In this document: one piece after another, positions 7,192 through 60,968 of the stretch
Numbering within the stretch: position 1 is the stretch's first letter
Layout: each line of letters opens with the position of its first letter
Position numbers and translations under genes: made by a program
Notes under the pieces: generated by a model
What the model was told of the DNA's origin: nothing
Databases searched by the model: none
Seen by the model: only the letters and a program-made list of their open reading frames with translations
NCBI GenBank assembly: GCA_963763745.1
Contig: CAVXQJ010000001.1
Coordinates: 130,431-194,430 of the forward strand
DNA from: an uncultured delta proteobacterium
GTDB lineage: Bacteria > Myxococcota_A > Polyangia > Polyangiales > Polyangiaceae
Length of the DNA: 64,000 nucleotides
Direction: 5' to 3'

Positions 7192-11188
<3,997 letters not shown>

Positions 11189-11245
11189 GTTTGCATCAGT
11201 GGATTGCGATGCCTCCGCACGGTCCCGAGCCGAAGTAGTCCGTCG

Positions 11246-13673
11246 TCACGTCCTATGGCAACGAGCGAATGTCACCACGTGAAACCTACCGCTCGGTCGT
11301 GGTCGTGCGATGCGAGGCGTCGGCTCGGGCGGCCTGCGTGGCGGTGATCCAGATCGGGATTGGTCGAGCGCGAACGGCGTGAATCGGCATGAACGGGAGG
11401 ATGTCGTCGATCGCGCGCGAGCCGCGGGCGATCGCGAGCGCCCACGTCGGCTCGGTCCGGTCGCGACGCGTCGATCGCACACGTCGGCATCGAAGCGAAC
11501 CGTGCGCGCCGCGGCTTCTTCGAGCGTGCCCGTCCGGGTCCCGTCGTCGTCGGGCGCGACGCGAACGTCGAACGTCTTGCGCCTCGCGCCCGCCGACGAT
11601 GATCTCGAACGAGCTGACGTCGACCCACGGCGCCGCGCGCACGCGAGTGCGCCCGAGTGGGCGCGCGAGCACGTCGACGTCACGTCGCCGCCGGGCCGCG
11701 CGCCTTCGACCTCGAGCTCGATGAGCGGTCCGCTCGTCACGGTCGCGTGCCCCTGCTTTGATCGCCGCGACGACCGCCGCGGTGTCGATCGGCCGGCTCA
11801 CGTCGCCCGCCGCCGACGCCGACGAACGCCATCGTCCGCGGGTAGCCGGCCCACTGATACTGAATGCGGTGCGAGTCGCTGCTGCCGGTCGCCGCGTAAC
11901 TGTGGCCCGCGTTCAGCAGCGCGAAGAAATCGCGCGAGCACGGTGTCGACCTTGTCGTGCGCGGCGCTCTCGTAGCCGTTGTAGACCTCGATCGCGTCGA
12001 AGTCCATGCGCATGCGCGGGCGGCAGCGCCGGCGCATCGGGCTTGTAGCCGAAGATCGTCGAAGTAGCCGATCGCCTGCGTGCAAGCGCGGGTGGTTGAA
12101 CGATGAGCGACGCGGTTCGGATCGCCGCGGTGCGCGGCGGCGAAGATTGCGCCGGTGTCGGTGCCGCGGAACGGCGGCGCGGTTGGCCGGTCGGGTACGG
12201 AAAGACGCCGAAGTGGCCGAAGCGCGGGTGTGAACGTGGTCACCTCGACCCCGGTGACGAACGCGAGCTGGCCGTCGAGGTTCTGCGATCTCGATCGCCG
12301 GGCCGTAGTCGCCGACGATGTTGTGCTCGCTCGGCACCGCGAAGTCGACGCCCGACGCGACGAGCGACAACACGCGATCCTCCGGCGTGACCGGCGAGTC
12401 GAAGCTCGGGCGCGCGTGCACGTGGAGATCGCAGCCGACCACGCCCGGCGTGGGGACGACGTGGCGGAGCGCGAGCTGCGCGCGAGGCGCTGTGGCCGCT
12501 GGTGATGGCGATCGTCTGCGCGTCGATGCTCCACTCGATGCCCTTCGTCGCCGCGACGCGGTAGCGGCCGGCGGGGAGCGGCGTCGTCAGTTCGCCGCGG
12601 AGCGCGTCGATGAGCGGGCCTGCGCCGGACGCGCGAAAATCGGGGCCGAAGCTGGGATCGAGCGTGCCCTCGATGCCGTGCACGACGACGCGCGCGGTGA
12701 GCGGCGCGCCGGTGTCGCCGTCGGTCACGCGCACGGGAGCTCGCCGCCGGGCGACACGTCGAGGCGGAGATCCCACTGCAAGCCCGGCGTGAAAAATGAT
12801 CGGCGCGCTCGTTCGCGACGCGCTCGCGCTCGCGTACCAACTCTTCACGCTCTCGGGCGCGCGCGAAATCGAAGCGACCTGCGACTTCGGTCCGACGCGC
12901 ATGTGCGGCGCGCCTTCGTCGTCGAGCCCGAAGACTTGCGACGAGCCCGGCGCGCCGGTCACGAGACCTTTCACGCGCTTCGTGTCGGCCTTCGCGCGAT
13001 CGAAGAGCACCGACCAAATCGCGCCGCCAGCGTTCGCGAGCGCGATCGTCATGCGCGCAGTTTCCACCGGCACGCTCGCGCGCATCGCCATCGTGTGCGC
13101 TTGGCCCGGCATCGACTCGATGGTGACGTGCATCATGTTGCCGTTCGCGACGACGCCGAGCGGGTGAACCACGTCGCCGAGCACGAGGTATTTTCCGTAC
13201 TCGCTCGACAAGTCCGCGAGCTCGCCGCGGCCGGAGAGAAACGCGCTGCGCCCGTCGAGCGGAACGCGCACGGCGATCGCGCGCGACGTCGCGCCCGCTT
13301 CGCTCGGTTCGATCGCGAGATCGATCGCGTCGCGTGCGGCGTCGATGGAGAGGTCCATCGCGCCGACGAGTTTTTCTCGACCATGCGCCGCCTGGCCGCT
13401 CGCGCGCAAATCGTCGAACGCGATCGCGTGAACGCCTTCGTCGTCTTCGATCACGAGCTCCGCGTCGATGGTGCGCGTGTGATCGTCCGACTCGATGCGG
13501 AGACGTCCGTCGCGGAAAATCGTGAAGTGCGCGTGCTTCGAGTCGAGCGTCACGCTCGGGCCGTTTCGCGTGCGAATGTCGCCGCACCGATGCATCTGAT
13601 GGACGAGCGCGACCGCCACGAGCACCGCGAGCGCGACGATCACGAACGGCTTCGAGCGGCTCTCCTCGGTCAT
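11246..13673 (-). pseudogene. PHP-domain metallohydrolase (CehA/McbA-like) with N-terminal signal anchor, frameshifted
   Basis: The N-terminal 400 aa (MTEESRSKPFVIVALAVLVAVALV...) are intact. The PHP motifs DLHVHARPSFDS, SEHN, AIEVYNG and GSSDSH sit in two other frames, and the 3' end is uncertain. Confidence 0.55.
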
Positions 13674-14134
13674 GGTGCGCGCGGCCCGCTCAGCGTCGCT
13701 TCACGCACGGACTTCTTCATCTCGATGTCGACGACGAGCTCGGGTCGTCCGCCGAGGAACGCGATCGCGTCTTTTCCCCATTCCACGATCAGGATTGAGC
13801 CCTCGGCGCGCCGTTCGCGCAAGCCGAGCCGTTCGATTTCGCGCTGCAGATCCCCGCCAAGGATGCGGTGCAGGTCGACGTGGAGCAGCGTGCCCTTCTT
13901 CGTTTCGTACTCTTGAACCAGGTTGAACGTCGGGCTCGTGATGCGCACGTCGTCCGGCACGCCGAGCGCGCGTGCGATGGCGCGCGCGAGAAACGTCTTG
14001 CCCGCGCCGAGGTCGCCGCTGAGGATCACGAGATCGCCGGCGCAGAGCTTCGCGCCAATCGCCGCACCGAGCTTCTGCGTGTCGCGTCGCGTACGAAGCT
14101 CGAGGTGCGGCATCGCGAGCCGTGACCTTATCAC
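13670..14134 (-). CDS. tsaE: tRNA threonylcarbamoyladenosine biosynthesis ATPase TsaE
   Basis: LSGDLGAGKTFLARAIARALGV Walker A and ITSPTFNLVQEY are signature TsaE/YjeE motifs; the start is possibly the Met at 14113. Confidence 0.85.
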   Translation of the reverse strand: MIRSRLAMPHLELRTRRDTQKLGAAIGAKLCAGDLVILSGDLGAGKTFLARAIARALGVPDDVRITSPTFNLVQEYETKKGTLLHVDLHRILGGDLQREIERLGLRERRAEGSILIVEWGKDAIAFLGGRPELVVDIEMKKSVREATLSGPRAP

Positions 14135-14230
14135 CTCACTTTCGAATCGGGTTGTTCGCGGGGTCGTCGATGGGCGCTTGAAACGAGCCGTGCGTCACGT
14201 CGATGTTCGCGCCCGCCGGAAGTCACACGC

Positions 14231-15313
14231 TCAGAATCGATAGAGCGCGCGCGCCATCGTGCCGCCGAGAACGATGGGTTCTGCTCCGCCGAACGCGCTC
14301 TCGACGTCGAACGCGACTTCGAGCTGCACGTGCTCGCCGAAACCGATCGACGCGAACGCGTCCGTGCGGAAGAGAAAACGCGATTCGAGATCTCCGCTCG
14401 TCACGAAGAAGCCGCCGATCGTGATCTCGGGGCCGACGAAGATGCGGAGCTTCGGCACGATCGGGATCGCCCAGCGCGCGCCGACATCGAGCACCACGGA
14501 GCCCGGTCCGTAGAACGCGCCGCCGAGATCCGCGCGCAGCGCGATGCCGCGGAAGAGCGACGGAAAACGCTCCGCGGAGAGCGGCGCGTATTCGAACGAG
14601 ATCGTCCCGTTGAAGGCGAACGTCGACAAACCATTTCCGCCCGTCGGATGCGCGAACGCTCCGTCGATTCCGAGACCGACGCCGAGCGCAAACGGCGCGT
14701 GGATTCCGTAGCCGCGATCGGGCTCGGGCGGCGGCGGCGGAGGCGGAGGCGGGGGCGGCGGCGGCGGCGGAGGTGGAGGCGGGGGCGGCGGCGGCGGCGG
14801 TTTGACGACCTCGTTCTCCCACGGGATCTCGGCGTTTGCGATTCCCTCGGGACGCAGCAGCAGCGCGAGCATCTCGGCGATCTGGTTGTTGGCCTTCTTT
14901 GGATCGATCTCGCGCGCGAGCGACTCGACGCGTCCACTGTCGACCTGACACGCTTCGACTTCGATTCGATACGAACCAGGAACCGCGCCCGGCCCGAGGT
15001 GCGGCGCGACGTGCCCGACGACGACCCACTGCGACGACGACGCGCGCCCCGCGGCTTGGTACTCCGCTTTCGTGTCGGCGACGCCGTCGGCGACGGCGAC
15101 TTGCGCGGTCGTCAGCTCGGAATCCGTTGCGGGCGTGAAGGCGCGCTGCATCACCGCGCCGAGCGTCGCGCTGCGCGCGGCGTCGAGCTGCTCTTTCGTC
15201 GCGTTGCCCCCAGACGCGGGCAAGAACGGCATCACCGCGACTTTGTCCGCGAGCGCGCTCGCGGCGATGAATGTGACGAACGAGAATGCGATGGCGGAGA
15301 AGAAGCGTTTCAT
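14231..15313 (-). CDS. secreted protein with a 27-residue polyproline linker and a C-terminal Gly-rich domain
   Basis: Signal peptide MKRFFSAIAFSFVTFIAASALA, then a P27 run, then a Gly/aromatic-rich C-terminal region reminiscent of beta-barrel-like domains. Confidence 0.6.
   Translation of the reverse strand: MKRFFSAIAFSFVTFIAASALADKVAVMPFLPASGGNATKEQLDAARSATLGAVMQRAFTPATDSELTTAQVAVADGVADTKAEYQAAGRASSSQWVVVGHVAPHLGPGAVPGSYRIEVEACQVDSGRVESLAREIDPKKANNQIAEMLALLLRPEGIANAEIPWENEVVKPPPPPPPPPPPPPPPPPPPPPPPPPEPDRGYGIHAPFALGVGLGIDGAFAHPTGGNGLSTFAFNGTISFEYAPLSAERFPSLFRGIALRADLGGAFYGPGSVVLDVGARWAIPIVPKLRIFVGPEITIGGFFVTSGDLESRFLFRTDAFASIGFGEHVQLEVAFDVESAFGGAEPIVLGGTMARALYRF
14724..14800. repeat. (GGC/GGN)n simple-sequence repeat, codes the polyproline run on the minus strand
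   Basis: ggcggcggcggaggcggaggcgggggcggcggc... runs for about 77 bp. Confidence 0.8.
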
Positions 15314-16832: not shown

Positions 16833-16861
16833 GCGGGACGTCTCCCCGGATGTACTCGCAA

Positions 16862-17783: not shown

Positions 17784-17797
17784 GCTAATCTCGCACT

Positions 17798-18727: not shown

Positions 18728-18994
18728 CTAATGACTGAGGCGCGCGGCGACCCGTGCGGAGAGCGGCGTCTCGTCGTCTTCGCTGCAAAAGAGAATCGCG
18801 CAGTGCTGGAGATCGGCGCGGCGCATGCGCGTGCAGAGCTCGACGAGGTCCTCATCCGAGTCGACGATCGAGCCTTCGATGACTTGCGAAGTCTTCATGT
18901 CGTAGCGGCACTCGTCGAGCGCCACCCAGCGCCCGCGAAGAAGACCGTCTTGTTTTGCTTGCTGAAGGGAGAGACCGCGCATTCGTTTGCGCAC
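18728..18994 (-). CDS. small hypothetical protein (DUF5678-like?)
   Basis: 88-aa ORF containing GRWVALDECRYDMKTSQVIEGSIVDSDEDLVELCTRMRR; protein-like composition. Confidence 0.35.
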   Translation of the reverse strand: MRKRMRGLSLQQAKQDGLLRGRWVALDECRYDMKTSQVIEGSIVDSDEDLVELCTRMRRADLQHCAILFCSEDDETPLSARVAARLSH

Positions 18995-19053
18995 TACCTA
19001 CCCTCTCGGCGCGGGGGCGGTCAAGAAAGGGTGTGGTACGTTTCGCGTGCGCC

Positions 19054-20338
19054 ATGGACACCGCAGCTCAAGCAATCGAGCGCGCCGTTCGCGAAATTCC
19101 CTTTTATGCGCGCCACCGGGAGGCGCTGCCCGAGGGCGCGGCGCTCGCCGACGTCCTCAAGAACCTCCCGCTCTTGTTCAAGAAAGACGTGCGGCGCGCG
19201 CTGCCGAAGTCCTGGGTGCCCGCAGGGCGCGACGTGAAGGCCGACCTCGAGTCGGGCGAGCTCGAGATCGTCGAGACGAGCGGCTCGACCGATGACCGGC
19301 TCAACATTCTCTGGGACCGCGGGTGGTGGCTCAAACAAGAAGAGCGCGCGATGCGGACGAACGGGCGCGTCGCGCGGGCGATGGACGGCGAGCTCGGTCC
19401 GTACCGCGAAGCGATCTCTGACGACGCCGGTGTGCGGCGGCGGGCAGTGTCACATCGGCGATCTCTCGTACGAGGAGCGCCTCGAGGATCATCGCATCTT
19501 CCTCAACATGCGCGCCGACCCGACGTTCTGGCAGGACGCCGACAAGACGCGCATGCTCGACGAGCTCGAGAGGCACGAGACCATCGGTCTCGAAGCGGAC
19601 CCCGCGTATCTCGCGGCGCTCGCGCTTCACGCGGAGAAAATCTCGCGCCGCATCGCCGCGACGGGTTTCACGCAGCTCACCTACGCATCGACGACGCGCG
19701 CGCACCTGCGATCGATTCGCCGCGCATATGACGGTCCGCTCTTTCAGCTTTATGGCGCGAGCGAGGTGGGCGTGTTGTTCATGGAGGGCGAAGACGGTCT
19801 CCTTCACCATTCGCCTTTCACGACGCACGTCGAGCTTCTTCCGGCGCGCGTCGAGACGCCTGGTGCGAAGGACGTCGCGCTCGTCGTCGTGACGACGCTC
19901 GATCGCATCGCGCAGCCGCTCCTTCGGTTCGTCGTCGGCGATCTCGTGTCCGTCGATTGGCAGGGGCCGCGAAAATTCTCGAACGTCGCGCCGCTGCGCT
20001 CGATCGAAGGACGCGTGCAAGACGCGGTGGCTCGTCGTGACGGCGCCCTCGTGACGACCGGCGCGATCGATCGCGCGCTCGACGCGCTCTCCGCGGGCAT
20101 CGAGCAGTTTCAAGTGCGGCAAGCGACGCCCGACGCGGTGGAGGTGGACGTCGTCGCGCGATCGTCCGCGAGCGCTTCGCTCAACGACGACGTGCGCTCC
20201 GCGCTCGCGCCGCTGTTCGGCGATTTGACGATGACCGTGCGCGACGTGACCGCCGTGGCCGCGGAGCCGAGCGGGAAGTTCCGCGTGTGCAAGCGCGATT
20301 TTCCGATCGACTACGCGAATTCGTTCGAGATTGCATGA
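19054..20338 (+). CDS. CapK/PaaK-family adenylate-forming enzyme (phenylacetate-CoA ligase / F390 synthetase-like), one frameshift near 19420
   Basis: ETSGSTDDRLNILWDRGWW AMP-binding-type motif, a CGGGQCH motif and the downstream fold. The N-terminal 120 aa are in another frame; its stop overlaps the next gene's start (ATGA). Confidence 0.65.
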
Positions 20339-45163: not shown

Positions 45164-45769
45164 ATGCTCGGCGCCGTCTTCTTTGCTTCGCCTCCGCCAC
45201 GCGGCAACATCGGTGCGATGACCGCAGCGGCGATGACCGTCGAAGCGTTTTCGCGCGAGGCCGCCGAGCTTCGTCCGCTGCTTCGCGCCGTCGCTGCGTC
45301 CGTGCTCCACGTGGGACCGGAGCATCCCGACGTGGACGACGCCGTCAGCGAGACGATGCGGCGCGCGATCGAAGGGCGCACGCGCGTCCGCGACGGCGAG
45401 CCGCTCCGCGCGTGGATCGTCGGCATCGTGAAGCACGTCGCGCTCGACGCCGCGCGCAGCCGAACGCGCGCGCTGAAGCGTCAAGCGGCGCCCGCACCCG
45501 AAGACTCGGCGCGCGATCTCGCCGATCGCATCCCCGACTCGAAGCCTTCGCCGTTCGAGCGCGCATCTCGCACGCAAGAGATCGCGAGACTCCGCACCGC
45601 GCTCGGCGCGCTCCCGGAGAAACACCGCGAGGCGGTCGAGCTCTTCTTCATCGAGGGCATGTCGTACGTCGACATCGGCAAGAAGCTCGGCGTGCCGATG
45701 GGCACGGTGGCGACGTGGATTCTTCGCGGGCGCAAGGCGCTCGCGGCGAGCTTGGAGAGAGACGCATGA
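45164..45769 (+). CDS. ECF-family RNA polymerase sigma-70 factor
   Basis: Region 2 (LRAWIVGIVKHVALDAAR) and region 4 HTH (FFIEGMSYVDIGKKLGVPMGTVATWILRGRKAL); the true start may be the internal Met near 45218. Confidence 0.8.
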   Translation: MLGAVFFASPPPRGNIGAMTAAAMTVEAFSREAAELRPLLRAVAASVLHVGPEHPDVDDAVSETMRRAIEGRTRVRDGEPLRAWIVGIVKHVALDAARSRTRALKRQAAPAPEDSARDLADRIPDSKPSPFERASRTQEIARLRTALGALPEKHREAVELFFIEGMSYVDIGKKLGVPMGTVATWILRGRKALAASLERDA

Positions 45770-46284
45770 ACGACGAAACCGAGAGGCTCTCCGAAGCCGA
45801 GACATGGAGCGGCGATCACTTGAGCGACGTGGCACTCTCGTGCCTCGCGGACGCGCAAGACGTGATCGATCCCGTCGCGCGCGTTCACGCGGAATCGTGT
45901 GCAGAATGCATGTTTCGCCTCGGCGCGATGGCGCTCGAGTCGCACGACGTCGGCGTTGCGCTGCGCGTGGCGAAGCAAATCGAAGCGCGCGAAGCCGCAC
46001 CGAAGACCGTGCATCGCTTCCCGACTCTCCTCGTCGCGGCCGCGGCGCTCGTCGCCGCGGTGTGCAGCGGCCCCGCGCTCGTCGATTCGCTCCCGCGCGC
46101 GATCGCGTGGGCGTTCGCTGCACCGCGCATGGTCCCCGCGGTCACGACGTCGCTCGTCGCCGTCGCGAAGAGCTTCTCGTCCGGATCGAGCGGCGCCGCC
46201 GCGTCCGTCGTCGCCACGTTCACGCTCGCGCTCATCGGCTTCGCGATCGCGCGCTTCTCACGTTCGTATGGAGTCAGATCATGA
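45766..46284 (+). CDS. anti-sigma factor (zf-HC2-like with a C-terminal TM segment)
   Basis: ATGA overlap with the sigma stop; HAESCAECM zinc-finger-like motif; a hydrophobic helix LLVAAAALVAAVC. Confidence 0.6.
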   Translation: MNDETERLSEAETWSGDHLSDVALSCLADAQDVIDPVARVHAESCAECMFRLGAMALESHDVGVALRVAKQIEAREAAPKTVHRFPTLLVAAAALVAAVCSGPALVDSLPRAIAWAFAAPRMVPAVTTSLVAVAKSFSSGSSGAAASVVATFTLALIGFAIARFSRSYGVRS

Positions 46285-47555
46285 AGTGGTTTGCATGCGC
46301 TGCGCTGTGCGGCATCGGTCTCGTCTCGAGCGTCGCGCTGGCGCAAGTTCGCCACGAAGGCGAGTGGCCCGTCGAGCTGAAGCACGTCTCGATCGAAGCG
46401 ACGCACGTCACGCACACCGAAGCCGTCACGCGGCTCGCGAAGGAAGCGGGCTGGAGCATCGCGCTCCGCGACATCGACGACACGAAGGCGATGGACCTCC
46501 ACCTGAACGACGTGCCCGCCGACAAAGCGCTCGACGTGATCCTCGGCGATGGAGAGTTCGTCGCGAAGCGCGACGGCACGATCATCACGATCAGCGGCGT
46601 CCCCAAGAAGGTTCCCGGACAAGTCGGCGGATTCTTCCCGCCCGATGCGCCGCAAGCCTCGGCGTCCGCGGTGTCGACGATTCCGCCGATGGCGACGATG
46701 CGCGGCGAGGATCGTCTCGTGCGCGGCGGCGATCTCGTCATCGCCGCGGACGAAACGGTTCACGACGTCACCATCTTCGGCGGATCGGTCTCGATTTACG
46801 GAACCGCGACGGGCAACGTCACGGTGATGGGCGGAAGCGCGTACGTGAAGAAAGGCGCGCACGTCGTCGGCAGCGCGACGGCGATCGGAGGATCGATCGA
46901 CGTGGACGACGGCGCGCAGATCGACGGCGACGTTGGCGTCGTCGGTGGCTCGCTCGACCGGCACAAGGGCGCGAAGATCGGCGGCGCGATCCACAAGAAC
47001 GACGACGTACGCATCGGCAATTCATCGTCGTCGTCGCACGGGATCTTGCGAGAGGTGAGCGACGCGACGACGCGCGCGGCGATGCTCTTCGTGTTCGGCG
47101 CGGTGCTCTTCGCGCTCGCGGGCAACAAGATGAACGCGCTTCGCGTCGAAGCGGCGTCACGCCCGATGCGCGCGTTCGCGCTCGGCATCGTCGGCGGGCT
47201 CGTCGGGCTCGTCATCATCGCGATCGTCGCGATCACCGTGATCGGCATTCCGGTCGCGGTCGTTCTCGTGCTCGGCGCGGTCTTCGCGAGCTACGCGGGC
47301 ATCTGCGCCGTGCTCGCGACGGTCGGAAAGGCGCTCGTCGGTCACAAGAGCGACAACCCGCACGTTCACTTGCTCGTCGGTTGTCTCCTCTTTCTCGTGA
47401 GCGGAGCGATCCCCATCGTGAACGGGCTCGTCACGCTTGCGGTCGTCCTGACGGGAATCGGCGTGATCGTCGCGACGCGAGCGGCAGGCACGGTCGGGCG
47501 CGCGCCGAATTCAGGCTCGTTCGGCCCGTATCGAGCGGACGCCACAACCGCATGA
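46281..47555 (+). CDS. secreted/membrane protein with an STN-like domain, a bactofilin-like beta-helical repeat region and C-terminal TM helices
   Basis: Signal MKWFACAALCGIGLVSSVALA; an STN-like segment; GNVTVMGGSAYVKKGAHVVGSATAIGGSIDVDDGAQIDGDVGVVGGSL repeats; three C-terminal TM helices. ATGA overlap with the anti-sigma stop. Confidence 0.5.
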   Translation: MKWFACAALCGIGLVSSVALAQVRHEGEWPVELKHVSIEATHVTHTEAVTRLAKEAGWSIALRDIDDTKAMDLHLNDVPADKALDVILGDGEFVAKRDGTIITISGVPKKVPGQVGGFFPPDAPQASASAVSTIPPMATMRGEDRLVRGGDLVIAADETVHDVTIFGGSVSIYGTATGNVTVMGGSAYVKKGAHVVGSATAIGGSIDVDDGAQIDGDVGVVGGSLDRHKGAKIGGAIHKNDDVRIGNSSSSSHGILREVSDATTRAAMLFVFGAVLFALAGNKMNALRVEAASRPMRAFALGIVGGLVGLVIIAIVAITVIGIPVAVVLVLGAVFASYAGICAVLATVGKALVGHKSDNPHVHLLVGCLLFLVSGAIPIVNGLVTLAVVLTGIGVIVATRAAGTVGRAPNSGSFGPYRADATTA

Positions 47556-47618: not shown

Positions 47619-50600
47619 ATGTCCGACAACACCCGATCCCGATCAGCAGGCTTGTCTGCGGTCATCGAAGCTCTCGAGCAACGGCTCGAGAACGAAGGTG
47701 AAGTCCTCGACGCGTTCTTGCTCGCGCTCGCGCGCAATCAACTCCCGAAAGAAGCGTGGCCGAAGCTCTATCAAGCCGCGCAGCGCGACGATCGCATCAC
47801 CGAGCTCGCGTTCGCATTCGAAGGCCTCGCGGGCGATCGCAAGCTCCGTACGCTGCAAGCGGGCGTGGTCGCGGAGTTCATGTATCAGTCGTCGATTTTC
47901 TTCGCCGACGTGATGGGCGATGACGTCGGCGCGGCGAGCTATCTCGATCGAGCGATGACGGCGATGCCGACGCACGCGGGATCGATCGCGCGCTTCGAAG
48001 AGAAGCTCACGCAGGCAGGCGATTTCCGGAAGCTCGGCGAGTTTTATTTCGACATGGCGCAACACCGCGCGCGCGCGGAGCAGGCGCCGGCGCTCAGAAA
48101 AGCGGCGGAGGCGTTCGAGAAGGCCGACGCGGGCGACAGGCTCGCGGACGTGCTCGCGATGCTCGTGCGCGTCGATCCCAAAGACGAAGAAGCACGCGCG
48201 AAGCTCGAAGGCGCGCTGCTCAACGCGAACAGGCCGCGCGACGTCGCGAAGATGCTCGAGCAAGCGCTCGCAGCGGACGCGTCGCTCGCGGACGACGTCG
48301 CGTTCGCGCATCGAACGAAGCTCCTCGCTTTGTACGACGAGACGGGCGAAGTGGAGCGCGCTCTGCCGCACGTCGAGTGGCTGCTCGGGCGCGCGCCCGG
48401 GCACGAAGGCGCGAAGAGCATCGGCATGCGCTTGCTCGAAGTGAAAGCGGCCGCGCAGCGTGTGGCATCGGCGCTCGCGAGCGCGGCGGAGAAGGAGCAG
48501 GCGTGGGGCGACGCGATTCGCTTCTACACGATCGAGCTCGAGCACGCGCGCGGCGCGCGACGCTTCGGTCCATTGCGCGCGCTCGCAGGGCTTCGTCACG
48601 ATCACGCCGACGATCTCCCGGGAGCATACGAAGCCGCGGAACAAGCGATTCAAATCGATCCGTCGGACAGCGACTTGCTCGATCGATACGTCGCGCTCAC
48701 GCGCGGGCTCGGCAAGCACGAAGCGGCGCAGAAAACGCTGCAGCGCCTCGTGAGCTTGACGAAAGATCCGGCGGCGCGCGCGCGTCTCTCCGCGGAGATC
48801 GGCGAGCTCCTGCTCGCGACGGGCGACGTCAAGCGAGCGCGCGCTGCGTTTTCGAGCGCGCTCACCGTTCCTGGCGCGCCGCCCACCGCGCTCCTTCCGG
48901 CGATGCACGCGCTCGCGCGTCTCTACGCGGAAGACGAAGACCACGTGTCGCTCGCGGAGATGCTCGAGCGAATCATCCACACGGAGACCGACGTCGTCAG
49001 GCGGCAACAGGCTGCGGAGCAACTCGCGGAGCTCGCGTCGGGCGCGCTCAAGGATCCGGCGCGCGCCGTCGCCGCGTATCGCGGGCTGCTCGACACACCA
49101 GCGCGCGCGCGCGCGCTCGCCGCGCTGGAACCGCTGCTCTCCGACCTCGGTGATGCGCTCGGGCTCGCGGAAGTGCTCCGCGCGCGCGCCGCGGACGCGC
49201 CGACGCGCGAAGAGAAGCGCGAACTGCTCGTGCGCGCCGCGGACCAGATCACCGAGGCGTCGGGTAATCATGCGGCCGCGTCGCAAGCGTGGAGCGAGAT
49301 CATCGAAGAGTTCGGCGCGACGAACGAGCTCCTCACGCGATGGATCCCGCTGCTCGAGCTCGAACGAGATTTCGCGAAGCTCGCTTCGGCGTACGACTCG
49401 CTCGCGAAGCTCCAGCACGGCGCGGACAAAGTCGGCACGCTCGGGCGCCTCGGTCTCTTGAAGATGCAGTGGCTCGGAGATGCGCCGGGCGCGGTGGAAG
49501 CGTTCGGCGCGGCGCTCGCGCTGGATCCGCACGACACGCTGTCGCGCGAGTCGATGGAGCAACTGCTCGACGCGACCGACACGGCGACCGCGCTCGCGGC
49601 AGCCGACGTGCTCGACCCAATCTATCGCGCGGAGGGTGCGCGTTCGGGAATGCTTCGCGTCCTCCTCGCGCGCGCGCAAGGCGCGAGCGACGCGGCGGTG
49701 CGCATGCAGGCGCTTTCGGATGCGGTGACGCTCGCCGAGCACTTGCCGAACGAACGCGCGCGCGTCCTCGGGCTCGTCAAGACTGCTCTCACGCACGCGC
49801 TCGACGAGGCGACGCCCGTCGCGCCGTGGATTGCGGCGCTCGATCGACTCTCTCCAGGCGAAGGCGGGGCGAACGCGCGCGCGGACGTGCTCGCGCTCGC
49901 GTTCGGCGATCGCGCCGTGTCGAACGACGATTTGCTTCTCGTCGCGCAGCGCCTCGGTGACGCGGCGATGAGCGCGGGCGATCGCGCGCGCGCTCTCGAA
50001 GCGTACAAACGCGCGCTCGATTACGCGCCGTCGTCGCCCGAGCTCATGGCGGGCGTGGATTTGCTGCTGCGCGAACAAGGCACGCCGCACGATCGCATGC
50101 GCCTCTATCGCGCGGCGCTCGCGAAGGAAACACAACCGGACAAGCGGCGAGGCCTACACCTCGCGATCGCGAACCTGCAACGCAAAGACTTGGGCGACGC
50201 GGGCGGCGCGATGGAGACGCTTCGCGCGAGCATCGCCGAGGGCGTGGACGACGCGACGGAAGACGCGCTCTACGATCTCTATTGCGAGGCTGGCGCGTTC
50301 GCCGATGCGTGCGCGCTCCTCGAGCAGCGGCTCCCGCGGACGCCGCCCGGCGAAGACGAGCGCCTCTTGCGTGCGCGGCTCGCGCGGCTCGCGTCGGATC
50401 ACGGGTTGCGCGAACGCGCCGTCGTGCACGCACGCGCTCTCGCCGAGGATGCGTTCGCGACGAACGCGGACCTCGATCTCGTCGAGCAAGTCGCGGAGCG
50501 CGCCGACGATCGCGATTTGCTCGTCGCCGCGTCGACGAAGCGCGTCGAGCTCGCCGAGTCGCCCGACGACAAAGTGTTCTGGTTCACGCGCCTCGGCACG

Positions 50601-53600
50601 CTCCACACCGAGCGCGGTGATGCGGCGAGCGCAGCAGCCGCGTGGCGCGACGGTGCGCTCGTCGCGGAGCAGATGGACGACAAGAAGACCGCGCGAAAGC
50701 TCTACGAGCGAATTCGTCGCGGCGCTCCATTCGATCGAACCGCAACCGAGCGGCTCGCCGGGCTCCTCGAATCGAGCGGCGAGTGGGGATCGCTCCCCGA
50801 GCTCTACGCGGCGCTCGTCGAGTCGGCCGGAAGCGCGATGGAGCGCAAGGACGCGCTCCTCAAGCTCGCCGATGTGCTTCGCACGCGGATGAACGACGCG
50901 CCCGGCGCGTTCGATGCCGCGGCGCGCGCGTTCCTCGAAGCGCCGAACGACGCTGAAGCGCTCGCGAAGCTCGTCGAGCTCGGCGTCGCCGCCGACGCAA
51001 CGAGCGCACTGACGCGCACGCTCGACAACGCGCTCGCGAGCGACGCAGGTCGCGATCCCACGCTGCGCGCTCGGCTCATCGCCGCGAAAGCGGAGCTGCT
51101 CGCGCAAGACGACGCCACCGCGGACGAAGCGCGCGGTCTCTTGCGCGGCGTCCTCGATGATCCCTTCTCGGACGCGGGCACGAAGGATCGCGCGGCGAAG
51201 CGCTTCGAAGCGCTGCTCGAGAAGCGCGACGCGCGCGGCGAAGCGGACGCATGGCGATGGCTTCTCTCGTGGCGTGCGCAGCGCGAGACGGGCGCGGCGC
51301 GCGCGAGCGCGTTCGGTCGATGGGCGAAGCTCGAAGAAGAGAAGCTCGGCGGCGATCTCGGACGCGCAATCGATTTGTGGAAGCAGGCAGCCGAAGCGGA
51401 TCCCGCGAGCGCGGAAGCCCACGCGGAAATCGCACGCTTGATGATCGCGAGCGGAGACGTCGACGGCGCGCTCGGAACGCTGCGCGTCAGGCTCGCCGCG
51501 TCCGAAGGCGAAGCAGCCTCGCGATTGCGCGCGGAGATCGCGGCGCTCCTCGCGTCGATTCCGGGACGCCAAGAAGAAGCGATGGGCGAGCTCCGCAGCG
51601 CGCTCTCCGCGAAGCCCGACGACGAAGCGGCGCTTCGCGTGCTCGTGCGTTTGCTCGCCCATCCCGAAATCGGCGCGGAGGCTTCGGGTCTCCTCGAGGG
51701 GTCGCTCGAGAGCGCGGACCCCGCGGCGCGAAAACGCGTGCTCGCCGCGCTCGTCTCGAGCGCGACGGATGCGCCCGTGGAGCGGCGTCGCGCGTGGCAC
51801 ACGAAGCTGCTCGATCTCGCGGTGTCGCAAGACGAGGCGTATGGCGTCCTCTTGCGCGCGCTCGCCGAGCTTCCGGCGGAGCTCGTGTGGTGGGATCGCG
51901 CGGAGCAACTCGCGCGTGCTCTCGACAGGCCACAAGAGCTCTCCGACTTGTATCAAGCGGCGATCGCGAAACCGCTTCCGACGGAAGACGCGCTCGAGCT
52001 CGGCCAGCGCGCCGTCGCGTTCCACGAAGAGTGGTTCGACGACGCGCAGGCCGTCGTTCGCATCCTCGAGCGCATGCTGGATCTCGATCCGGGCGGGTGG
52101 GCGTTCGATCGACTGAAGCTCCTCTTCGACTCGCAGGAGCGATGGGACGATCTCTTCGCGCTCTACGATCGCATCGCTCGCGGGCGACGTCGACACGACG
52201 CGCCGGATCGGAGCTCCTCGAGGACGCCGCGCAGATCGCGAAAGACTTCGCGAAGCACGCGGAGCGCGCGGTCGGGTATCTCGAGCAGCTCCTCGCACTC
52301 AAGCCGAAGAACGCGCGCTTGCTCGCGTCGCTCGAGCGCCTCTACGAGCGCCACGGAAGGCACCGCGAGCTCATCGGGCTCCTCGGCGCGCAGCTCCGGC
52401 GGCACGACCGCGGAAGACGCAGGAGACGCGCATGCGCATGGCGACGCTCTGGCTCGACGAGCTCGGCGACGCGGGCTCCGCGCTCCTCGTCGTCGAAGAG
52501 ATGATCGCACGCGAGCCGGACACGCCGCGCCGATCGACGTCGCTCGGCGCTGCTCGAGCGCGTCCTCGCCGCGGCGCCCGCCGGCGCGGAGATGAAGAAG
52601 ACGCTGCCGCCGACGTCGACCTCGCCGGTCGCGAGCGCGTCGCGGCCGCGCACGAGAGCGTGATTCGCCCGCCGCGCGCTTCGTCCGCCGCGCGGGTCGC
52701 GTGCCGCCGCCGGGCGGAAAGGGCGCGAAGCGCATGCTCGTCAGCCAGCGCGCGGCCGTCGCTTCTTCAAGAGAGCGTTACGCGGAGCTGGCGCGCGACG
52801 CGGATCTCGCGCGCATGCTCGAGGTCGAGCTCGAGGCGGTGAAGAGCGCGAAGGAGCGCATTCGCCGCCACGCCAAATCGCGAAGCTCACGAGCAGCTCG
52901 GCAACGACGCGCGGCGCTCGAGCACTGCGTCGCGCTCGTCATGCTCGATCCCGACGCGACGACGCATCGCGAGCAGCTCTCGCGAATCGCCGAGAAGGTG
53001 GGGCGCTTCGATCGGCTCGCCGAGGTGCTCGCGGCCGCGGCCGACGACTGCACAGGCGACGAGCTGCGCGTCGATTGCTCATGCACGCGGCCGCCGTGCA
53101 CGCGGACGACTTGAACGAGCGCGACGCGCGCGATCGACCTGCTTTTCCGCGTGCTGCTCGTGTCGCCGATCGCGCAGGCGTCGCTCCTCGCGCGCGTGCC
53201 GCCGCATCGATCCGCTCCTCGCGACGCCGGGCGCAAAGCGCGAGCGCCTCGACGTGCTCGAGCGCCTCGCGACGCTCGAGCACGAGCCGCGGAGGGCGCA
53301 AAGCGGGTGCTCGGCGCAGCGGCGCGCCTCGCGGCCGAGATCGGCGAGACCGATCGAGCAATCGCGGCGTGGGAAGCGCGCTCGCACGATGATCCGCACC
53401 GACACCGAAGCGCTCGACGGCCTCGTCGAATCCTGCTCGGCAAGGCAAGCGCTGGCGGCGCTCGTCGACGCGCTCCTGCGCAAGCGCGCCAGGCGAGCCG
53501 AAGGCGGCGCGAGCGCGCGCCGACCGCGTGCGGGTCGCGCGCATCTTGTCGAGCGAGCTCGGCGAGCCGCGGACGAAGCGATCGACGTCGTGGCGCGACC

Positions 53601-56600
53601 GTGCGAAGGCGAGTTCGGCGAGGCCGACGACGAGCAAGCGCGCGCTCGTCGAGCTCTACAAGGGCTGGAGCAAGTGGAAGGATCTCGCCGCGATGCTCGA
53701 GCGCGCCGCGGAGCGCACGAAGATCGCGAAGAGCGAGCGCCGCGCTGCTCCGCGAGCTCGGCGACGTGCAGCGCGAGAAGCTCGACGAGCCGAAGGCGCG
53801 ATCGAGAGCTACGCGCGCAGCGCTCGACGCCGAATCCGGGTGACGCGCGCGCGATCGCCGGGCTTGACCGCGCTGCTCGACATCGAGAAGGCCGCGCGCA
53901 AGGCGCTCGACGTGCTCTTGCGCGATACGCGTCGGGCGATGCGTGGGCCGCGATCGTGGCGCTCTTGCCGCAGCGACTGCGCCTCGCGAGCAGCGACGAG
54001 GAGCGCGTCGAGACCCTGCTCGAGACTGCGGACTTGTTCGAGCGCCGCGCGAGCGACATCGAAGCGGCGTTCCACGCGGCGCGCGAAGCGTTCACGATCG
54101 CGCGCGGCAAATCCGAGGTCGCCGAGATCGCGGAAGGCTCGCCGAAGCAGCACACGCGGCGGGAACGCCCGATGCGTATCGCGCGTTCGCGGACGCGCAG
54201 CGTGGTCGTGCTCGACGCGCTCGAGGGCACGCGCGGCAACGATCCGAACGTGCTCCGCCTCCGCACGAAGCTCGGCACGATGCTCGAGACGTACCTCGAC
54301 GATGCGCGCGGCGCATTGTTGCAATATACACGCGTCGCGAAGGACGACGTGACCGAGGCGGACGCGGCGCTCTCCGTGATTCGCGTCGCCGGGCGCGTGA
54401 GCCGATGGGACGCGGCTGCGAAGATCGTTCTCGAATCGTGCGGCGGTCGAGGGCGCGCCGAACGAGACGCTCGTTCATGCGCTCGAAGACGCGGCGTCGG
54501 CGCACGCCGGTTGGGACGCGCTCACCGCGGCGTTCGAAGCGTCGGTCGCGGAGCACGGGTCGATTTGCTGCGGAGGCGGCGCGCGATCTCGAAGCGCGCC
54601 TTGCGACGTGGCATCGCGATCGTCGCGCGGACGCGGAGGCCGCGGAGGCCGCGTATGCGCGCGCGCTCACGCACGACGCGAACGACACGCGCCTCTTGTC
54701 TCAGCTCGCGCAGCTCCAGCGGCGTCATCGCGGTCGTCCGCTCATCGAGAGCTTGCTGAGGCTCTCGCAAGCGACGGGTGGCGATCCGGAGCTCTTGCGC
54801 GAAGCGGCGGAGGTCGCGGGGCGCGTCGTCGTCGATCGCAGTCTCGCGAAGACGATCCTCGAGCGCCTGATGAAGCTCTCCTCGGAGCGGTGGACCGCGA
54901 GCGAAGAACATCCGCCGAGCACGGTGTCGCCCGACAAAGACAAGACGCTCGGTGATGCGGATGGCGCGCCGAGCGTCGGACAGGCAGCGCACCCGAGCGA
55001 GCACGTCGAGTGGGCGCTGGCGGAGCTCCTTCGCGTGCACAACGAGGAAGGAAACGCGGAGCGCATCGTCGAGCTGCTCGAAGAGTCGGCGAAGCTTCCG
55101 TTCACGCGCGCGCGCACGCGCGAGATTTTGCACGAGGCCGGGCGCACCGCGCTCGATCGCGTCGGCGATGCTCGCGCCGCGCAAAGGCTCTACGCGCGCC
55201 TCTTCGACGAAGATCCGCGCGACGAAGAAGCCGCGTCACGCCTCGCCGAAGTGTACGCGTCGCTCGGACGCAAAGAAGATTTGCTCGCGGTGCGCAAGCG
55301 CCAGGTCAGCGTCGCGGAGAGCGCGACGGCGCGCGTCGAGCATCGCCTCGAAGCGGCGCTCATCGAACGCGAGCTCGGCCACGTCGACGAAGCCGCTGCG
55401 ATCTTGCGCGAGAATCTCATCGATGCGCCAAGGCATCCGAAGACGACGCTCGTTCTTTCGGAGACGCTCGAGAGCGCTGGACGCTGGGACGAGCTCGCGG
55501 CGTTCTGCGCGGAGCAAGCGGGTCTCGCCGAGGCCGACGGCGACGCGCTCTCGGCGGTCGAGCTGTGGTCGCGCGCGGCGGTCATCTCGGAGGAGAAGCT
55601 CCAGCATTTCCCGCTCGCGCTCTCGCACTACAAACGCGCGCTCGCGCTCGAGCTTCGCGCGCCGCTGCTCGATGCGATCGCGCGCATTCACGAGCATCAA
55701 AAAGAGTGGCTCGACGCGGCGACGCACCTCGACCGCCTCGTGCGCGAATTCCCCGAGCAGCGCCCGGCGGTGATCATTCGACTCGCGGACGCGTTCACGA
55801 ACGCATCGCGCGACGACGCAGCGCAAGAGCGACTCGAGGCGGCGCTGGGCGATCCGAGCGCGCCGGCCGAAGTCCCGTCGCGGCTCGCGGCGATTTACCG
55901 GCGCACGCAGCAGTTCGCACCGCTCGGCGAGCTCATTGCGCGGCAAGCGGAGGCCGCGAAGACGCCGGACGAACAGCGCACGTCGCTCGTCGAGGCAGCG
56001 GAGATTTTCCTCGGACGCTGCGCGCAGCCCGATCGCGCGGTGCCGCTGCTCGAGCAAGCATCCGCGCTCGCGCCAGAGGATCGCGTGCTCAAGCTTCGAC
56101 TCGCCGAGGCGCTGCAAGACGCGGGTCGCGCGGATCAAGCGCGCGCGCTCTTGCGCGACATGATCGACGGCTTCGCGGGCCGACGTCCGAAGGAGCGCGC
56201 GACGGTTCACTTCCACCTCGCGCGATTGCACCTTCGCATCAGCGAACGCGCGCAAGCGCTCGCGGAGCTCGAAGCGGCGACGCGCATCGACCCGGCGAAC
56301 CCGGAGATTCTGCGCATGGTCGCGGAGCTCGCGCGCGACGATGGTCAGCTAGACAAAGCGGAGCGTTCGTATCGCGCGCTCCTCGCGGTGGTGCGTCGCG
56401 CCGATGACGACGCGCCCGTCTTGCGAACGGAGGTCCTCGTCGAGCTCAGCGCGCTCGCGGAGCGACAAGGCGAGCCGGAGCGCGCGTCCGAGATCCTCGA
56501 GTCGGCGTTCGAGACGGCGACGACGTCCGAGGCGGAAGCGAAGCGACTCGAGAAAGCGCTCCGCGCGCGCGGCAACATGCAAGGCCTCTTGCGGTCGCTC

Positions 56601-59600
56601 GCCGCGCGACTCGAACGCGCAAAAGAACACACGGCGCGCGCCGACGTGTTCTTCGAGCTCGCGAGCGCGCACGAAGCGCTCGGTGACGCACCCGCCGCGC
56701 TGCGCGCGCAGCTCGATGCGATCGCAGAAGTCCCCGACTCCGCACAAGCGCACGACGCGGCGATGGCGCTCGCGAAGAAGCTCGCGACGCCCGAGGCGTA
56801 CATCGACGCGGTGGTCGCGCTGGCGGATCGCGCGAGCGCGAGCGGCGATGCGCGCGCGGCGTGCACGCTCATGCTTCGCGCGGCGAACGCGCTCGGCCAA
56901 GTCGACGGAAGCGGCGCGCGCGTGACGTCGCTGCTCGAACGCGCGAAAGAGACGGGCGCGATGCGCGGCGAAGTCCTGCGCGCGCTCGATCACGCTTACG
57001 CGGCGCTCGGTGATGAGGAGAAACAGGAAGCGACGCTCGCGGAGCTCGCGGCGCTCGAGGTGGAGACGACATCGCGCGATCCGCGAACGTCGAGCGACAT
57101 TCTCTATCGACTCGCGGAGCTTCGCGTGAAGCGCGACGAGACGGTGGACGACGCAGCTCGCTCGCTCGCCACGGCGCTCGACCTCGCGCCCGACGCGGAG
57201 CGCGCCGCGACGATCGCGGAGATGGCGATCGGACGCGGGGCGTCGACGGGCGCAATGCTCGACGTCTTCGTGCGCGCGGCGCGGCTCACCGCGCGCCCGC
57301 AGCTCGTGCAGCGCGCCGTCCTCTTGCAGGCGGAGCAGCCCGAAGCCGCGCTCGCGACGCTGCGCGAGGCCGCGACGATCACGCTGCAATCCGGAGATGG
57401 GGCGCGCGCGGAGTCGTTCCTTCGTCGCATCGTGGACGTCGCGACGGGGCAGCGCGATGTCCTTCGGTGGGCGCTCCTCGAGCTCGCGGCGCTCGTGTCG
57501 GCGCGCGGCGACGTCGCGGATGCGCTCGCGCTCGAGCTCGCCGCGGGCGAGCATTGCGAGCCAGCCGACGCGCGTCGTCTTCGCGAAGGCGTCGCGCTGC
57601 GTGCGCGACAGCTCGGCGACGCGGCGCTCGAGCTCCGTGCGCGCCGCGAGATCATCGCAGCCGATCCGACGGACGCGTCCGCGCGCACCGCGCTTCTCGA
57701 GCTCTTGCGCACGACGGGCGACGACGCGGCGCTCCTCGAGGTCGTCGAGTCGCTTCTTCCGACGGTCACGGACGATGCGGAGCGCCGAGCGCTTCGTCGC
57801 GAACGCGCGCGGCTCCTCGCCGCACAACCTTCGCGCGTCGACGAGGTGATCGCCGAGCTGCGCGCGCTCCTCGACGAAGAACCGTACGATGCGCACGCCG
57901 TCGCGCTCCTCGCCGAGCTTCTCGAAGCGCGCGGCGAAACGGGCGAGCTCGCTTCGCTCCTCGAGCGCCAGCTCGATACGGCCAAGGATCGACAAGACGC
58001 ATCGGGCGTCGCGATGCTCACGCTTCGGCTCGGCGCGCTCCTCGAGTCCTCGGATCGCGATCGCGCCCGTGAGCTCTACACGATGGGCCTCGACTGGGAT
58101 GCGAAGAACCGGCCGCTCCTCCTCGCGATGCGTGCGCTCCTCGCGGATGCCGATCCCGCCGATCGCGCAGACGTGATGGAGCGTTTGCTCGAGACCGAGC
58201 GCGGCGAAAGCGCAGAGGCGCTCGCGCTCGAGCTCGTCGCGATTCGCGCGGAGGCGTGGGACGACGCAGGCGTCGAGCGCGCGCTCGAGATTGGTCTCGC
58301 CGGTCACCCCGCGAGCGACGAGCTTCGCACGCGGCTCGTGACGATGTACGCGGACCGCGGCGACAGGCGGAAGCTCGCGGCGCTGAAGGAGACGAGCGCG
58401 CGCGCGATGACGGGCGCCGCGGCGAAGGCGGAGCTCCTCTCCGCGGCGGAGATTCATCGCGAGCTCGGCGACGCGGAGGCTGCGGTTCGCGCGCTCACCG
58501 CCGCGCGCGCCGTCGATCCATCCGACGTGCGAGTTCTCGGCGAGCTCGTGTCGGCGCTCGAACAACGCGGCGATGAACGCTCCGTCGCCGAGCTCGGCGC
58601 GCTCATCGAAGCGTCGCCCGACCCGACGTTGCTCGGCGCGCGCGCGCGCGTGCTCGCATCGCTCGGCCGTCACGACGAGGCCATCGCCGACGCAGAGCGC
58701 GCCGCGAACGTCGACCTTCTCTTGCACGTTCTCTCGCGCGCGGCCGACGCGGCCGAGCCAGCTGCGCAGAAACCGCTGCGCCGTCGCATCGCGGAGCTCT
58801 ACGCGTCCGTGGGTCGCGTCGACGAAGCACACGCGCAGCTCGAGGTGCTCCTCTCGCTCGACGACACGGATCGCGAAACGCTCTGGTCGATGGCGCGCAT
58901 CGAAGAAGCCGCAGGTCGCTTCGACACCGCGAGCGACACGTACGTGCGTCTCGTGGATCTCGAAGCGGGAGACAAGCTCGTCGAAGCCGCGCTGCACCTC
59001 GCCGATGCGTCGATGCGCGCGCAAAATCCGGGTTACGCGCGCGAGGGTCTCGAGAAGGCGCGCGCGTCGGCGCCCGCCGACGATCGCGTCCTCGAGAAGC
59101 TCGCCGCGATCTATCAAGCGAGCGGCGCGCACCGCGAGCTCGCCGAGCTGCGCATCGCGGAGGCGCGCGCGGCGACCGATCCAGCGCGCCGTTTCGAGAT
59201 GCTCTGCGCCGCCGGCGCGACGCTCCTCGAGCACGACCCAGCCGCCGCCGCGAACGCGCTCGAAGAGGCGCGCACGATCAAACCCGCCGACATGGAATGC
59301 GCGGGCCTCCTCGGCGACGCATACATCTCCGCGCAACGCTTCGACGAGGCGCGCGATCTTCTCCAAGCGGTCGTCGCCGCGCAGAAGGGGCGACGCTCGA
59401 AAGACCTCGCGCAGATCTATCTTCGCCTCGGACGACTCGAGACCGCGCTCTCCAACCCGAAGGGCGCGCTGCAGATGTTCACCGCCGCGCTCGACATGGA
59501 CGGACAAAACGGCGTCGTCGCGTCGGAGCTCGCGCACGTCGCGCTCACCGAAGGCGAGCTCGAGCTCGCGACGCGCGCCCTCCGCGCGATCACGATGCTC

Positions 59601-59765
59601 CGCACCGCTGCGCCGATCTCGAAGGGCATCGCCTACGAGCGCCTCGGCGAAATCGCGATGCACCAAGGCGACAACAAACGCGCCGTCATGCTCCTCAAGC
59701 GCGCGATCGACGAAGACGCCGAGCTCGAGCACGCGCGAGAGCTACTCGCTCAGCTCGGCGGGTGA
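47619..59765 (+). CDS. giant TPR/alpha-solenoid repeat protein (~4000 aa), with a cluster of at least 6 frameshifts between about 52200 and 54600
   Basis: ORFs 47619..52595 (1658 aa) and 53943..59765 (1940 aa) are in the same frame, and repeat-protein pieces in the gap (51251, 52432, 52701, 53254 ORFs) hop between frames. Composition is uniformly Ala/Leu/Arg/Glu-rich TPR-like throughout. Confidence 0.65.
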
Positions 59766-59780
59766 TAAACGTATCGCGCG

Positions 59781-60968
59781 ATGTACTTCCAAGACATCAT
59801 CCAGTCGCTTCAGGCGTTTTGGGCGAAGCGCGGCTGTCTCGTTTTGCAGCCGTACAACTCCGAGGTCGGCGCGGGCACGTTCAACCCCGCGACCTTTCTT
59901 CGCGCGCTCGGCCCCGAGCCGTGGAAGGTCGCGTTCGTCGAGCCGTCGCGCAGACCCGGCGATGGCCGCTACGGCGACAACCCGAATCGCTTGCAGCAGT
60001 ATCACCAGTTCCAAGTCATCTTGAAGCCGTCGCCGATCGACATTCAGGATCAATACGTCGAGTCGCTCCGCGCGCTCGGCACGGAAGCCGAAGAGCACGA
60101 TCTTCGATTTCTCGAAGACGATTGGGAGTCGCCGACGCTCGGCGCGTGGGGCCTCGGCTGGCAAGTGTGGATGGATGGTCTCGAGATTTCTCAGTTCACG
60201 TACTTCCAACAAGTCGGCGGCTTCGATTGCAAACCCGTGAGCGGCGAGCTCACGTACGGCGTCGAGCGCATCGCGATGTACTTGCAAGACGTCGACGACG
60301 TGTACGACGTGATGTACGCGCCCGGCGTTCGATACCGCGAGATCTACAAGCGCGCGGAGTGGGAGTGGAGCACGTACAACTTCGAGCAGGCGGACATCCC
60401 CGCGCATTTTGCCGCGTTCGATCACGACGAGAAGGAGTGCAAACGCTTGCTCGCGCTATCCGATGACCCGACGAAAAAATTGGTTTTGCCCGCGTACGAT
60501 TTCGTGACGAAGGCGGCTCACATGTTCAACGTGCTCGACGCGCGCGGCGCGATCGGCGTGACGGAGCGCGCGCGCTTCATCGGTCGCGTGCGCGGGATGG
60601 CGCGCGGCGTCGCGGAGGCGTGGGTCGCGCAGCGCAAGGCGCTCGGTCATCCGCTTCTCATCGCGGCGACGATCGCGATCGCGATGTGCTTCGCGTGCAG
60701 CGGCGGAGGCGGCGACTCGAAGTATCCGTCGCGTCCGGATGGCTGTGACGTGCAGGTGTATCAGCAGTCGCCGACGGTGAAGACCGAGAACATCGGCCCG
60801 GTCACAGCGTCGTGCGACGACATCGTGTCGAAGGACGACTGCCTCCGCACGCTGAAGGATCAAGTGTGCAAGCTCGGCGGCAACGCCGTGTGGGGCGTTC
60901 CCGCGGAGCCCGATCACGACGGCGACAAGTGGAAGTACCAAGGTCGCGCCGTGCACACGACGCCGTGA
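59781..60968 (+). CDS. glyQ: glycine--tRNA ligase alpha subunit fused in frame to a ~95-aa lipoprotein-like Cys-rich tail
   Basis: The first 300 aa are a canonical GlyQ ([19 protein letters not shown]...GHPLL). With no stop the ORF continues [18 protein letters not shown] (signal/lipobox-like) plus a 6-Cys domain. Confidence 0.8.

Follow-up and report, generated by a model that had tools for sequence, protein, structure and literature searches.

A ~4,030-codon tetratricopeptide repeat gene in a Polyangiaceae genome, split by a frameshift patch of probable consensus error

We analysed a 64,000-nucleotide (nt) stretch (the window) of contig CAVXQJ010000001.1, from an uncultured member of the Polyangiaceae, in which two very long open reading frames (ORFs) lie between positions 47619 and 59765 of the forward (+) strand. 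By comparison with its orthologues, the window holds one conserved gene of ~4030 codons, not two, for a giant tetratricopeptide repeat (TPR) protein, and positions 52176 to 54566 of this gene are very probably a patch of low-quality consensus from a long-read (meta)genome assembly. The patch probably had low read coverage or was left unpolished, and single-base insertions and deletions at a rate of ~1-2% would have scrambled the reading frame ~29 times within it. The record would in this way contain kilobase-sized patches of near-raw-read quality within an otherwise good consensus, with the giant gene itself most probably unbroken in the organism.

Two ORFs, one gene and the map of its frameshifts

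The upstream ORF (47619..52595) has an ATG start and encodes 1658 amino acids (aa), and the downstream ORF (53943..59765) has a nominal GTG start and encodes 1940 aa. A sequence-only reading of the window had noted that both lie in one frame, which was borne out by the ORF coordinates and a frame check (frame 0, with codon position 1 at positions divisible by three). The GC content by codon position showed the pattern of high-GC coding sequence, low at position 2 and high at positions 1 and 3, in frame 0 over 47.7-52.1 kb and again over 54.6-59.8 kb. Between these two clean parts the low-GC codon position shifted repeatedly, frame 0 being left at ~52.1-52.2 kb and regained at ~54.6 kb. In the three-frame translation, TPR-like helical-repeat sequence rich in Ala, Leu, Glu and Arg switched frame repeatedly within the patch, where frame 0 contains four stops. 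Since frame 0 coding picks up only at 54567, position 53943 is not a real start of the downstream ORF.

The protein search with the clean 5' part recovered the called 1658-aa product (P0001) together with close relatives that are 1648, 1011 and 965 aa long and encoded on long contigs. In the loci of these relatives the same 12-kb gene was called in two or three pieces, of 1648+1605+590, 1011+3021 and 965+3045 aa. In short-read-style assemblies the gene is an uninterrupted ORF, encoding 4059 aa in locus L006 (JBBSFE010000007), 4053 aa in L008, 4027 aa in L042 (JGI contig Ga0335078_10000279) and 4130 aa in L041, and in ~20 more Polyangiaceae loci the frame stays open for 3480-4116 codons. The single-ORF orthologues (~3500-4100 aa) share 76-87% local identity with the window gene, the distant ones ~35-45%, and the closest relative is L042. 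Many proteins of ~3900-4060 aa were also returned when 1.8 billion cluster representatives were searched exhaustively with a 124-aa motif of the giant gene. It is because the orthologues in short-read-style assemblies form one uninterrupted ORF that we assign the two ORFs of the window to one gene. The comparison with orthologous giant TPR genes that the sequence-only reading had proposed as a check therefore yielded intact single ORFs, and these, together with a colinear alignment over 47619-59765, back its suggestion of one 12.1-kb gene carrying sequencing indels.

The frameshifts were located with a purpose-written protein-to-DNA dynamic programme that permits one- and two-base skips. Plain tblastn was unsuitable for the patch because the internal self-similarity of the TPRs led its high-scoring segment pairs across the patch in the wrong frame. 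In the alignment with L042, reference residues 1-4027 matched window positions 47619-59760, with 3299 of 4010 aligned residues identical (82%), and the L042 ATG aligned to 47619, the start of the giant gene; alignment to L006 gave a comparable end-to-end match. This reference gave 29 frameshift events, comprising 19 one-base and 10 two-base skips, and the references L002, L003 and L006 gave 25-29 events at nearly the same coordinates. The sequence-only reading had recognised the hopping between frames, but its count of at least 6 hops was a large underestimate. It was right that the shifts net to a multiple of three, since they total 39 (13x3) against L042. The flanks stay in register because of this total, which we ascribe to chance, the prior expectation being one in three.

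Every event fell within 52176-54566, about one per 85 nt, and the frameshift-aware alignments were free of them over the remaining 9.75 kb (47619-52175 and 54567-59762). By our own arithmetic, the chance of 29 evenly spread events all landing in 2.39 of 12.1 kb is ~(0.197)^29, roughly 1e-20. The gene accordingly comprises an intact 5' part (47619..52175, residues 1-1519), the frameshift patch (52176..54566, 2391 nt, ~29 net +/-1 events) and an intact 3' part (54567..59765, ~1730 residues and the stop). The 5' part is a single frame by its GC profile, has no frameshift relative to L042 (85% aa identity) and contains TPR Pfam matches; the 3' part is also a single frame, has no frameshift relative to L042 or L006 and contains strong TPR matches. 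Once restored to frame, the patch was stop-free and encoded residues ~1520-2307. The window gene is thus colinear from end to end with the intact Polyangiaceae ~4000-aa group. Its copy is not a single ORF as recorded, and we attribute this to sequence error, not to biology.

Long ORFs were also present opposite the giant gene, at 56349..59732 (-, 1127 aa) and 47643..50135 (-, 830 aa) in the window and at 4916..15130 (-, 3404 aa) in L042. These are not genes; such ORFs are expected from 70% GC and a codon set rich in Ala, Leu, Arg and Glu.

Indel excess in the patch and its possible causes

The DNA-level context of the indels was read against L042, as L006 (76% identity) was too divergent to place them. 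With gaps excluded, the nt identity to L042 was 83.7% in the patch versus 84.1% and 82.9% in the flanks. There were 66 gaps of a length not divisible by three in the patch versus 8 and 14 in the flanks, where all of them were adjacent compensating pairs, i.e., alignment noise. By these counts, only indels appear to be in excess within the patch. The restored patch protein was 74.5% identical to L042, versus 85% and 83% in the flanks. Against L006, the dN/dS was 0.29 in the patch and 0.21 to 0.24 in the flanks; the value for the patch indicates that the underlying sequence is coding sequence under selection. Long direct, inverted or tandem repeats able to explain an assembly collapse were searched for, and none were found.

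These data bear on the possibility, raised by the sequence-only reading, that the central 2.4 kb is truly decaying, either as a recent pseudogene or as a degraded and dispensable middle, so that the indels would be real mutations. The sequence as given, with its four in-frame stops and ~29 frameshifts, agrees with decay, as does a dN against L006 that is slightly higher in the patch (0.247 vs 0.18). The differences private to the window were moreover flat across codon positions 1, 2 and 3 in the patch (9.1, 8.2 and 7.6%) compared with the 5' flank (4.7, 3.1 and 8.3%), where they followed the pattern of selection; flatness of this kind would also result from noise that is not under selection or from leftover misregistration. 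Neutral decay, however, adds several substitutions for each indel, and nt substitutions relative to L042, the closest orthologue, were not raised. A dead gene should also gather indels over its whole 12 kb, yet there were none outside the patch, all of them lying in 20% of the gene, and the region is open in every orthologue. Finally, housekeeping-type genes elsewhere in the window hop between frames just as densely as the giant gene. With no excess of substitutions, the rest of the gene free of frameshifts and unrelated genes broken in the same way, we consider decay improbable.

The damage to other genes was followed by two methods. A codon-usage hidden Markov model (HMM) was run over the window to flag same-strand frame changes; from 22 to 52 kb and from 54.6 to 64 kb it stayed in one frame for long segments, and rapid same-strand changes appeared at 8.6-10.8 kb, in parts of 12.3-16.8 kb and at 19.1-21.6 kb. 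In Pfam split tests, whole-frame translations with X in place of stops were scanned. A SufS-like class-V aminotransferase gene (20287-21552, +) had its Aminotran_5 match divided between two frames, one covering profile positions 91-233 and the other 243-358. At least four hops between the two frames could be read in its translation, with N- and C-terminal pieces in alternating frames; the evidence for this gene is the Pfam split and the visible translation, the orthologue search having returned fragments only. An Lgt-like (prolipoprotein diacylglyceryl transferase) gene (~15400-16830, -) matched positions 72-181 of the LGT profile in one frame and 174-214 in the other. Frameshifts in such unrelated genes of housekeeping type point to the sequence record, and not to selection on the giant gene.

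Poor long-read consensus is consistent with the absence of the indels from the orthologues, with the restoration of the frame to a stop-free conserved protein and with the Aminotran_5 and LGT splits in unrelated genes of the same contig. The long-read origin of the window, and low depth or failed polishing as the cause of its patches, are what we infer from this combination. Indels in nanopore consensus sequences are known to produce frameshifts, especially below ~40x coverage (PMC9262707).

Several observations weigh against this explanation. The errors were not concentrated at homopolymers: runs of at least four bases occur at 0.8 per kb in the patch and runs of at least five are absent, no link between indels and homopolymers was found, and the indel contexts were mixed, with GATC perhaps frequent among them but no convincing homopolymer or motif bias. 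One-base insertions outnumbered deletions ~2:1 relative to L042. The patch therefore does not carry the classic error signature of polished nanopore sequence, and its indels, we assume, fit raw or near-raw read quality better. In addition, relative to the more distant L006, the patch showed ~5% extra nonsynonymous differences even when codons near the events were excluded, and these could be real substitutions and not residual misregistration. Poor consensus nevertheless remains, in our judgement, the very probable cause.

The dense +/-1 indel patches (52.2-54.6, ~15.4-16.8 and 19.4-21.6 kb) could instead be real in the DNA of the organism; they might, for example, have been resynthesised by a repair process that is very prone to errors and generates indels, in a lineage able to withstand losing these genes. 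We give this only a slim chance.

Slimmer still is the chance of two separate genes, one of ~1500 aa at the 5' end and one of ~1700-1900 aa at the 3' end, with a degraded intergenic or linker region between them. Gene calling does yield two long ORFs, the first of which is the 1658-aa P0001, and a Myxococcota family of ~2600-aa proteins represents a shorter stand-alone form of the core of the giant protein. The coding content of the patch, however, is conserved and runs colinear with residues ~1520-2307 of the intact orthologues, none of which has a stop or a start in this interval. The boundary between the N-terminal extension and the core precedes the patch, falling within an open frame at ~51.8 kb. 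Promoter-like and + strand terminator-like sites were looked for within the giant gene, and none were found. The degraded-linker alternative named by the sequence-only reading is thus not supported.

Least likely of all, and in our view negligible, is biological recoding through programmed ribosomal frameshifting or transcriptional slippage: in its favour, the shifts add up to a multiple of three and the event at 52684-52700 coincides with a frameshift at 14519 of L001 in a CG-rich low-complexity stretch, but L006, L042 and L002 read straight through with none of the events present, homopolymer or slippery runs are absent from the patch, and ~29 events in 2.4 kb far exceeds, to our knowledge, any known recoding system. 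The compensating frameshifts are most probably not biological, and with poor consensus as the preferred explanation, the main value of the analysis is as a data-quality flag for patches of the window in which gene calls are unreliable. The giant gene has been split into false proteins of 1658 and 1940 aa that have already entered the protein databases (P0001), and tallies of pseudogenes or of protein lengths in this genome, like estimates of its completeness, would mislead.

Other parts of the window, split-gene relatives and neighbouring genes

The closest relatives of the window gene come from nanopore metagenome-assembled genome (MAG) projects (contigs named contig_NNNNN and Microflora Danica bins MFD01872 and MFD05705) and carry isolated frameshifts in the giant gene at other positions; a third relative with a split gene is on a contig whose name ends in _np1212. 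From this naming, the split-gene relatives would be long-read metagenome assemblies. At 14519 of L001, a nanopore-MAG relative, and at 52684-52700 of the window there is a one-base insertion each, within the same few columns of the CG-rich low-complexity stretch CCGCCGCGCGCG. The insertion at this stretch was absent in L002, L003 and L006, and the stretch is possibly a recurrent error-prone context. In L002, the frameshift-aware alignment to L006 placed a +1 / +2 pair at 18642 and 19402, 760 nt apart within the open 3021-aa ORF; the pair may enclose a stretch that is out of frame and then compensated, or it may be an artefact of the alignment.

In the remainder of the window, the ORF pair 18955..19731 and 19292..20338 (19067-20363, +) reads like a single gene whose frame changes near 19449, and Pfam gave no match to either ORF. 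The rapid minus-strand frame changes flagged by the HMM at 8621-10802 lie downstream of a TPR-containing ORF (7192..8664), and this region may be a further low-quality patch. The HMM called 10803-12278 and 16786-17798 non-coding. At 14231-15313 (-) there is an intact 360-aa ORF whose N-terminus resembles a signal peptide and whose C-terminal part ends in Phe, as is the case in outer-membrane beta-barrels; it also contains 25 prolines in a row (14726-14800). The frame "switch" that the HMM called at 14633-14798 was rejected as false, being produced by the proline run in this intact ORF, so that the 12.3-16.8 kb patch is only partly dirty.

Upstream of the giant gene and on the same strand are genes for an extracytoplasmic function (ECF) sigma factor (45164-45769; Pfam Sigma70_r2/r4_2), for a 175-aa product (45757-46284) that is conserved in the loci of close orthologues, and for a ~410-aa protein (46326-47555) whose orthologues are matched by DUF8173 (PF26514). 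By tblastn, these upstream neighbours (45164..47555) were syntenic in L001-L007 and L012. Downstream, glyQ, encoding the glycyl-tRNA synthetase alpha subunit (59781..60968, +; Pfam tRNA-synt_2e, 459 bits), begins 16 nt past the stop of the giant gene and occupies the same position in L001-L003, L006 and L010. The order of ECF sigma factor, DUF8173-like gene, giant gene and glyQ was observed in the window, L001-L003 and L005-L007, and only partially in distant loci. Because its conservation is limited to close relatives, this neighbourhood is not family-wide and gives no firm functional clue. Further downstream of glyQ, a 240-aa TPR protein (61562-62284, +) and a DsbD-like protein with DsbD_TM and Thioredoxin_7 domains (62400-63692, +) are encoded; the L001 locus contains both of them as well.

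The TPR solenoid, its family and comparison with known systems

The product of the gene is a cytoplasmic all-alpha TPR solenoid of ~4,030 residues and an orthologue of the Polyangiaceae single-ORF protein. Its TPR-like content, expected from the sequence-only reading, was established by Pfam matches above the curated cut-offs: TPR_19 at 113 bits (cut-off 25), TPR_2 at 57, TPR_14 at 51, TPR_11 at 43, and others. The scan covered the two clean parts and detected no domain other than TPR. There was no signal peptide, and no hydrophobic segment was found outside the patch. The protein consists of 20% Ala, 14% Leu, 10% Arg and 9% Glu.

Across the phylum, conservation is highest in a motif of ~100 residues at residues ~1420-1520. 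This motif belongs to a landmark region (51804..52175, +; window residues 1396-1519) that corresponds to the N-terminus of the ~2600-aa core and follows the pattern WD..E.LA...P.EV..LY....RAV.FHEEWF....DP..WAFDRL....ERWDDL..LYDR, with invariant W, F, Y and P columns in the family alignment A1. In BLASTP, residues 26-121 of P0076, a 2582-aa protein of Pseudenhygromyxa sp. WMMC2535, were 40% identical to window residues 1425-1518. The motif lay within the first 150 residues in 57 of 82 matches, mostly proteins of 2577-2660 aa, and the exhaustive motif search returned 657 cluster representatives at E<=1e-3. Among P0121-P0263, three length classes could be distinguished, of ~2600, ~3480 and ~4000 aa. 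The motif lies at residue ~10-140 in the ~2600-aa class, and most of the ~3480-aa and ~4000-aa proteins have it at ~1360-1540 (~1400-1540 in the ~4000-aa class).

Because the motif position differs between the length classes in this way, the Polyangiaceae protein is a ~2600-aa core preceded by an extension of ~1400 aa (47619..51800, +) that is missing from the ~2600-aa Myxococcota family. Residues 147-710 of P0076 matched window residues 169-742 with 27% identity over ~570 residues (E 2e-14). As the extension distantly resembles the beginning of the core, it is probably a partial duplication of the core start. This architecture, a ~2600-aa core with a landmark N-terminal motif and, in Polyangiaceae, a duplicated ~900-1500 aa extension, may be of use to students of the family.

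The fold was tested on the family member P0076 in place of the window protein itself. An AlphaFold2 model of its residues 1-360, the first 360 of the core, was built with the family alignment A1, which includes the window motif, and formed a continuous 20-helix solenoid with a predicted local distance difference test (pLDDT) score of 94. The top Foldseek matches of this model in the PDB, at probability 1.0, were the TPR domains of OGT and SPINDLY, designed consensus TPR (CTPR) proteins, BBS4/8 of the BBSome, LGN and Naa15. A role as a very large cytoplasmic scaffold for protein-protein interactions is the only functional reading that the fold suggests.

Giant TPR proteins had been described in the sequence-only reading as typical of Myxococcota and uncharacterised; this is consistent with the source names of our matches, and no paper on the family came up when the literature on giant Myxococcota TPR proteins was searched. 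The gene thus represents one more orthologue of a known, uncharacterised, Myxococcota-wide TPR family of 2600-4100 residues with a sharply conserved motif and discrete length classes.

Among known systems, the window gene is closest to the Polyangiaceae ~4000-aa TPR proteins (L042, L006), with which it shares full-length colinearity, the position of the start codon, the motif at residues ~1400-1520 and, in close relatives, the neighbouring genes. These proteins are uninterrupted, in contrast to the window copy with its ~29 frameshifts in 52176-54566. The ~2600-aa Myxococcota family annotated as "tetratricopeptide repeat protein" (P0076) is homologous to the C-terminal ~2600 residues and has the N-terminal motif FHEEWF / WAFDRL / ERWDxL..YDR, but it lacks the ~1400-aa extension, is only 25-30% identical outside the motif and is uncharacterised as well. 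The solved TPR superhelices are more distant, since TM-scores of 0.2-0.3 indicate that only the repeat type is shared and that the superhelical pitch is another; no specific function can be transferred from them because no catalytic or other partner domain is attached to the giant protein. The patch itself resembles known indel artefacts of long-read sequencing, in which ORFs are broken by +/-1 indels lacking in intact homologues, several genes per contig are affected and the frame can be restored under protein guidance; a preprint describes such protein-guided correction of long-read frameshifts (bioRxiv 10.1101/2021.08.23.457338). It differs from them in that the errors of the window lie in kilobase-sized patches at ~1-2% and off homopolymers, whereas the errors of polished nanopore sequence are described as sparse and homopolymer linked.

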